A DNA stretch of 352 nt, taken from NCBI RefSeq assembly GCF_003334335.1, contig NZ_QOWQ01000210.1; one strand, written 5' to 3'. Both the position numbers and the translations under genes were made by a program. Source of the stretch: Escherichia coli. Lineage in GTDB: Bacteria; Pseudomonadota; Gammaproteobacteria; Enterobacterales; Enterobacteriaceae. Below are positions 1 through 352 of the stretch, piece after piece. How positions within the stretch are numbered: position 1 is the first letter of the stretch; each line of letters starts with the position of its first letter. The notes under the pieces are model-generated. The model saw nothing but the letters and a program-made list of their open reading frames with translations, was not told where the DNA came from and searched no databases.

Positions 1-1
1 G

Positions 2-130
2 CGTCACCCTGAACTGATGTTCCGTCACCCGGAAAACGAGTACGACTGGCTGAGCTCAGACGCCGCTGTGGATGAGGCCCTGCTCATAAACGAATACACC
101 TTTACCGAAGGCGGTCTGCGCGCCGGCTGA
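2..130 (+). CDS. 3' end of an upstream ORF, 5'-partial (42 codons plus TGA stop); product unknown
   Basis: Seen in sequence: + frame 2 is open from position 2 to the TGA at 128-130 and translates to RHPELMFRHPENEYDWLSSDAAVDEALLINEYTFTEGGLRAG*. The other two + frames hit stops at 10-12 (TGA) and 15-17 (TGA). It is co-oriented with and 49 nt upstream of the antitoxin gene, consistent with an operon. I do not recognise the peptide, and it does not match my recollection of the DUF987 (YeeT) protein that precedes yeeU in E. coli K-12. Product left unassigned. Confidence 0.5.
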   Translation, partial: RHPELMFRHPENEYDWLSSDAAVDEALLINEYTFTEGGLRAG

Positions 131-167
131 CCTGTCATCGTTAAACCATTCTTAACCGATTTTCTGT

Positions 168-172
168 GAGGA
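168..172 (+). promoter_or_regulatory. Shine-Dalgarno sequence (GAGGA) for the antitoxin gene
   Basis: Seen in sequence: GAGGA at 168-172 with a 7-nt A/T-rich spacer (173-179, TTTTATC) before the GTG at 180. This is canonical spacing for an enterobacterial ribosome-binding site. Confidence 0.6.
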
Positions 173-179
173 TTTTATC

Positions 180-352
180 GTGTCAGACGCACTCTCCGGG
201 ACAATGCTTCCCGACGACAATCACGACCGCCCCTGGTGGGGGCTGCCCTGCACCGTGACGCCCTGTTTCGGGGCACGTCTGGTGCAGGAGGGTAACCGCC
301 TGCATTACCTTGCCGACCGCGCCGGTATCAGAGGCCTGTTCAGCGATGCAGA
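180..352 (+). CDS. cbeA: CbeA/YeeU-family type IV antitoxin (YagB/YeeU/YfjZ family), N-terminal 57 codons; 3'-partial, continues beyond the window
   Basis: Seen in sequence: GTG start at 180, preceded by an in-frame TAA at 153-155 and the SD at 168-172; the frame is open to the window end. Translation: VSDALSGTMLPDDNHDRPWWGLPCTVTPCFGARLVQEGNRLHYLADRAGIRGLFSDA. Established knowledge, from memory: this closely matches the N-terminus of E. coli K-12 YeeU/CbeA (MSDTLPGTTLPDDNHDRPWWGLPCTVTPCFGARLVQEGNRLHYLADRAGIRG...), including the long N-terminal extension that separates YeeU-type proteins from the shorter YfjZ/YafW paralogs. Full-length proteins are about 120 aa, so roughly half the gene lies outside the window. 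Confidence 0.85.
   Translation, partial: MSDALSGTMLPDDNHDRPWWGLPCTVTPCFGARLVQEGNRLHYLADRAGIRGLFSDA

Follow-up and report, generated by a model that had tools for sequence, protein, structure and literature searches.

A probable cbeA (yeeU)-type antitoxin gene start and the putative relic of a deleted gene in a 352-base stretch of Escherichia coli DNA

The question raised by this locus is whether an open reading frame that runs off the end of a short stretch of Escherichia coli DNA belongs to a toxin-antitoxin pair and, if so, to which paralog and to which chromosomal island it should be assigned. The stretch consists of 352 bases of contig NZ_QOWQ01000210.1 (assembly GCF_003334335.1) and is referred to here as the window; on its plus strand, bases 180–352 form a frame of 57 codons plus 2 bases that stays open to the window edge (V/MSDALSGTMLPDDNHDRPWWGLPCTVTPCFGARLVQEGNRLHYLADRAGIRGLFSDA). 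We are highly confident, on the basis of sequence comparison, that this frame is the 5' part of an antitoxin gene of the cbeA (yeeU) type, located in a conserved CP4-44-like island block that also contains the toxin gene cbtA, and that its product would act by the mechanism known from strain K-12. With an ordinary cbeA allele in an island block of the usual kind, the fragment represents already known biology rather than a new system, a judgement that the preliminary description of this DNA had made correctly.

The comparison used the whole window as a megablast query against 5426 complete E. coli genomes. Matches came from 4811 E. coli records; in 260 records the identity was no less than 99%, and among the matches listed all 25 window rows are 100% identical over 352/352 bases. 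Ten loci containing the window at 100% identity were read (L001, L002, L008–L011 and L018–L021), and references to identical-window loci below are to this sample. The start codon of the frame is GTG at position 180, with the sequence GAGG 8 nucleotides upstream (168–171), and RefSeq places the start identically in every one of these loci (for example, 10180–10548 in L001), naming the product cbeA or "YeeU family antitoxin". In 10/10 of them the frame reaches 122 amino acids.

The identity of the encoded protein is established by searches with the 57-residue fragment, as had been proposed together with the original assignment to the CbeA/YeeU family. Among PDB chains, phmmer finds 2H28 ("yeeU", the crystallised E. 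coli YeeU) at E=2.4e-35 with 54/57 residues identical, as well as 2INW (E=3.8e-33) and the YfjZ structures 2EA9 and 2JN7 (approximately 1e-12). The Pfam model PF06154 (CbeA_antitoxin) matches residues 18–56 at model positions 1–39 of 101 (E=2.8e-18), the match being partial because the window edge cuts the domain. The family match and the identity to a solved YeeU structure confirm that assignment. Residues 1–17 constitute a variable N-terminal tail and the domain begins in residues 18–57. All three amino acid changes relative to K-12 cbeA are located in the tail (A4T, S6P and M9T, the K-12 residues being T, P and T), and the two differences within the domain part are both synonymous. The PADLOC defence models did not match CbeA or CbtA. 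Small open reading frames of 33–40 amino acids overlap 180–352 on the minus strand; they are unsupported and were taken as chance occurrences in GC-rich coding DNA.

Which paralog the fragment represents, a point left open by the preliminary description, can be settled from the commonest full-length product, WP_001278232.1. This protein is 93% identical to K-12 CbeA (114/122 residues), compared to 65% for YfjZ (CP4-57) and 62% for YafW (CP4-6), and it possesses a 14-residue N-terminal extension that is missing from YfjZ and YafW, which are 105 amino acids long. Because of this identity and the extension, the sequence comparison assigns the gene to the CbeA/YeeU type and not to YfjZ, YafW or YagB. 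With K-12 cbeA (CP4-44) it also shares the GTG start, the leader from about 35 nucleotides upstream, the gene order yeeS-yeeT-cbeA-cbtA-yeeW and a gap of 88–89 nucleotides to the toxin gene; apart from A4, S6 and M9, the differences from the K-12 protein amount to a few C-terminal substitutions. YfjZ and YafW resemble the window gene in having the PF06154 domain and in being flanked by a DUF987 gene upstream and a CbtA-family toxin gene downstream, but their toxin genes start 20 nucleotides past the antitoxin stop rather than 89 (PMC5371832). The YeeU-family antitoxin of the O157:H7 type (WP_001280954-type, 124 amino acids) is found in the same island block, with the same deletion junction between yeeT and cbeA and the same 162-nucleotide spacer; it is 89% identical, differs in its C-terminal tail (APATTS), and its toxin gene starts 46 nucleotides past the antitoxin stop.

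The conserved block has the order DUF932, antirestriction, RadC/JAB (yeeS), DUF987 (yeeT), cbeA, cbtA and DUF5983 (yeeW), and in the RefSeq layout of identical windows the DUF987 gene ends at base 17 and is followed by a 162-nucleotide gap and by the cbeA start at base 180. A co-oriented open frame of the CbtA family (MKTL...) begins exactly 89 nucleotides past the cbeA stop in 10/10 identical-window loci, and in 9/10 it is intact with 124–125 amino acids, a ratio that is rough given the sample of ten. The L001 toxin (10638–11015) shares 111 of 124 residues (90%) with K-12 CbtA and is recognised by the Pfam model PF06755 (CbtA_toxin) with E=1.1e-61. Of the 5426 complete genomes, 4677 cover at least 80% of the region that begins with the window and ends with cbtA. 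The earlier expectation of a co-oriented CbtA-like toxin gene 3' of the antitoxin thus held in every locus read, the gene being truncated in one of them, whereas the claim that it follows immediately did not, the gap being 89 nucleotides; the corresponding K-12 spacers are 88 nucleotides for yeeU/yeeV and 20 nucleotides for yafW-ykfI and yfjZ-ypjF (PMC5371832).

According to work on K-12, CbtA binds FtsZ and MreB directly, and CbeA stabilises the bundling of their filaments and does not bind the toxin (PMC5624674), which is the definition of type IV for the CbtA/CbeA class (PMC5371832). In the mechanism that we propose for the window allele, CbtA would bind the H6/H7 loop of FtsZ and, independently, MreB, thereby blocking division and elongation, and CbeA would interact with the FtsZ and MreB filaments and stabilise their bundling, neutralising the toxin without contact with it. 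This type IV bundling mechanism is carried over to the window allele solely from its 93% identity to K-12 CbeA and should be read as predicted by analogy. As for expression, a consensus promoter scan found no sigma-70-like promoter on the plus strand before cbeA or anywhere between yeeS and cbtA. The lack of a recognisable plus-strand promoter weakly suggests transcription from further upstream, and cbeA would probably be expressed by read-through from yeeS-yeeT. A weak promoter-like site (186->159) and a weak terminator-like hairpin, both on the minus strand, were treated as chance. No Rfam family was found in the whole window at E<=1, leaving an RNA element in the spacer without support.

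Several observations weigh against this interpretation and have to be considered together with the alternatives. The window stops at codon 57, the part of cbeA beyond it and the toxin gene having been read in identical copies elsewhere, and the co-transcription with yeeT has the negative promoter scan as its sole basis. In L002 (NZ_CP029164), moreover, the toxin gene breaks off after its first 99 bases (10638–10736), where unrelated DNA on the mtnK side begins, and RefSeq calls the toxin a C-terminally truncated pseudogene. This locus combines a window at 100% identity with an orphan cbeA, and the source of the window could likewise contain an intact cbeA whose cbtA is truncated or lost, leaving no working pair; within the CbeA family, K-12 YagB may also be an orphan antitoxin (PMC5371832). 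An orphan antitoxin had been named in advance as evidence against a functional pair, and it does occur for this exact sequence, although in one of the ten loci only. Given the nine loci with intact toxin genes and the broad coverage of the stretch through cbtA, we regard an orphan as unlikely. A pseudogene fragment, or a frame open by chance, is hardly credible as an alternative to an expressed gene: just 57 codons are visible, and the adjacent upstream DNA is a gene relic itself in a region prone to deletions, but in 10/10 loci intact 122-residue genes contain the fragment without a single difference, and it has a Shine-Dalgarno sequence at the correct spacing, differs from K-12 in its domain part by synonymous changes only, and shows homology at E=2e-35.

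The remaining alternative concerns the mode of action. In yeast two-hybrid assays the distant CbtA and CbeA of E. amylovora gave no interaction with FtsZ or MreB (PMC6521040), which also weighs against our interpretation because it indicates that not all members of the family share the mechanism. The window gene might consequently encode a CbeA-family protein without the canonical cytoskeleton bundling, one that binds the toxin directly or acts on other targets. A further point in this direction comes from the toxins themselves. Cys15 is present in the CbtA-family toxins of L001, L008, L010, L011 and the O157:H7 locus L007, and the toxin partners beside identical-window copies all have C15, whereas K-12 CbtA has Arg15; the engineered change R15C in K-12 CbtA abolishes MreB binding (PMC5624674). 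However, C15 also occurs in YpjF and YkfI, and since an interaction of YpjF with MreB has been reported (summary in PMC6521040), C15 alone does not predict a loss of binding. F65, the FtsZ contact, is retained in the toxins beside this cbeA type, and the full-length CbeA shares 93% of its residues with the K-12 CbeA for which bundling is established, the differences being located in the N- and C-terminal tails. A non-canonical action therefore appears very unlikely to us, and we retain the interpretation of the fragment as the start of a cbeA gene with the K-12 mechanism.

Unlike the paralog, the island from which the window comes is not identifiable from its sequence, because identical copies occur at no fewer than five chromosomal sites; of the genomic context that had been left open, this part is not determinable. 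L001, which was read to 20 kb, is located at the CP4-44 site adjoining tmaR-yeeA-sbmC-dacD, and L018 contains the same island block. Elsewhere the identical 352 bases adjoin mtnK/yjhU-yjhG (L002), lie beside an integrase and the vat island (L008 and L009), or adjoin cadC-cadB (L010) and yicL-nlpA-yicS (L011). A genome has a median of 2 matching places and at most 11. Previous reports describe three paralogous loci in CP4-6, CP4-44 and CP4-57 (PMC5371832) as well as yeeS-yeeT-yeeU-yeeV blocks in islands at pheU, pheV and selC (PMC6174562). The identical-window copies differ in their flanks, in the remainder of cbeA and in the toxin alleles, which shows mosaic recombination among paralogous islands, both within and between genomes. 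Phage genome records hold essentially none of the window sequence (one partial match, in a 3.2-kb record) and the plasmid collection yields few matches, several of the best ones being megabase-sized records; judging from these searches, the element behaves as a chromosomal island module and not as a phage or plasmid gene. Beyond cbtA in L001 (11012–16170), DUF5983/yeeW and DUF957 are truncated and are followed by remnants of the insertion sequences IS110 and IS3, and by a group II intron reverse transcriptase gene (ltrA) sitting within an IS3 transposase gene.

The spacer between yeeT and cbeA has a history of its own. A search with window bases 18–150 finds 7168 places in 3705 genomes; at some of these the matching DNA is the 3'-terminal part of a 645-bp coding sequence located between the DUF987 gene and cbeA (669–1313 in L004, L005 and L006), with 86–92% identity. 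From these alignments, bases 18–130 of the 162-base "intergenic" stretch (18–179) are identified as the decaying 3' relic of a deleted gene for a 214-residue protein, which is intact in other islands. The relic forms a 37-codon open reading frame at 17–130 (MFRHPENEYDWLSSDAAVDEALLINEYTFTEGGLRAG) because the deletion fuses the last codons of the gene to the yeeT stop; its ATG overlaps that stop (TGATG) and looks translationally coupled. O157:H7 strain SS17 (L007) has the same deletion junction and a relic that is 11% divergent. The relic is probably decaying, since the window and O157 copies differ by 9 non-synonymous compared to 3 synonymous codon changes and the O157 copy lacks the conserved YDWL motif. 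A new coupled micro-gene was considered for the 37-codon frame and rejected as the main interpretation in view of its match to the C-terminus of the 214-residue protein and the 9:3 ratio of non-synonymous to synonymous changes. K-12 lost the same gene by a different deletion that kept approximately the first eight codons, and its yeeT-cbeA spacer is 73 nucleotides long compared to 162 in the window because a different part of the gene survives. The leader from about 145 to 179 is near-identical among the window, K-12, O157 and the full-length loci, being kept with or without the upstream gene. A direct repeat at 2–13 and 23–34 (CGTCACCCTGAA and CGTCACCCGGAA, 11/12 bases identical) brackets the deletion junction and does not simply explain it; where the gene is full-length, the second copy has the sequence CGTCAACTGGAA. 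The NCBIfam hidden Markov models matched neither the 37-residue relic nor the antitoxin fragment, full-length CbeA, CbtA or DUF987, a result that is uninformative given that Pfam and PDB identify CbeA and CbtA clearly; the annotation pipeline PGAP does name CbeA, CbtA and DUF987. The features of the window are collected in Table 1.

Table 1. Coordinates of the features in the 352-base window and the evidence for each
Feature	Positions	Strand	Basis
3' end of yeeT (DUF987-family gene), codons ...V-T-L-N and stop TGA at 15–17	1–17	+	RefSeq coding sequence end in L001 at 10017, equal to window position 17; identical to the K-12 yeeT end AGCGTCACCCTGAACTGA
Relic of the deleted 214-residue gene, last 37 codons and stop TGA (128–130)	18–130	+	Alignment of 18–150 to the 3' end of the 645-bp coding sequence
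Leader upstream of cbeA, with Shine-Dalgarno GAGG at 168–171	131–179	+	Alignment with K-12, O157 and full-length loci
5' part of cbeA/yeeU: GTG start, codons 1–57 and 2 bases of codon 58	180–352	+	Frame, PDB and Pfam matches, RefSeq starts

The deleted gene belongs to a family whose members are named "hypothetical protein", "antitoxin of toxin-antitoxin stability system" or "DUF8835 domain-containing protein" by PGAP and in databases; in RefSeq record NZ_CM192137.1 the product is spelled "DUF8835 domain-containing pootine", a typographical error in public annotation. A search with the 214-residue protein gives 2876 protein clusters at E<=1e-5, including ones from Escherichia, Salmonella, Klebsiella and Citrobacter, and alphaproteobacterial homologues in Devosia, Tistrella and Stappia are approximately 60% identical. 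The protein sequence has no match in the Pfam-A library, PADLOC or PDB, its sole match being PHROG 5162, which is of unknown function, and our literature search found no paper mentioning DUF8835.

Its gene neighbourhoods raise the question whether the DUF8835 protein works together with the CbeA/CbtA module, as a partner or as a modulator, rather than being a bystander. In many enterobacterial islands its gene directly adjoins cbeA or cbtA. Salmonella enterica islands (L024 and L025, 4287–6084) have the order DUF987-CbeA-CbeA-DUF8835-CbtA, with the two CbeA genes in tandem and slightly overlapping. At least four independent E. coli assemblies (L014–L017, 3001–4032) contain a natural in-frame DUF8835-CbeA fusion of 343 amino acids, which arose by a TGA->TTA change and a 34-bp deletion in the spacer and which is followed normally by a CbtA-family gene. 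The "antitoxin" label of the databases points the same way, and we found no experiment behind it. On the other hand, the homologues of Tistrella and Devosia (L022 and L023, 5001–5645; approximately 62% identical) are found in conjugative-element contexts among genes for ParB, a relaxase, a coupling protein, ArdC and antirestriction proteins, with no CbeA or CbtA nearby, and the DUF8835 gene has been deleted at least twice independently while the toxin-antitoxin pair stayed intact. The distant homologues that lack CbeA/CbtA neighbours likewise weaken the idea of a three-gene module of DUF8835, CbeA and CbtA. We thus consider a functional partnership improbable; apparently DUF8835 is an accessory gene of mobile elements that derives its "antitoxin" label from its neighbours, and a functional link to CbeA is unlikely.

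With respect to the toxin-antitoxin system itself, the window adds little: cbeA/cbtA is a textbook type IV pair, and the allele is found unchanged in hundreds of sequenced E. coli. That the 352-base stretch is not assignable to a single island has consequences for read mapping and island typing. The "antitoxin" label of DUF8835 should not be trusted as it stands, and if the DUF8835 protein were a partner of CbeA/CbtA after all, the lineage of the window would represent a derived two-gene form that dispensed with it. The relic in the spacer documents the repeated loss of this widely distributed, uncharacterised 214-residue family.
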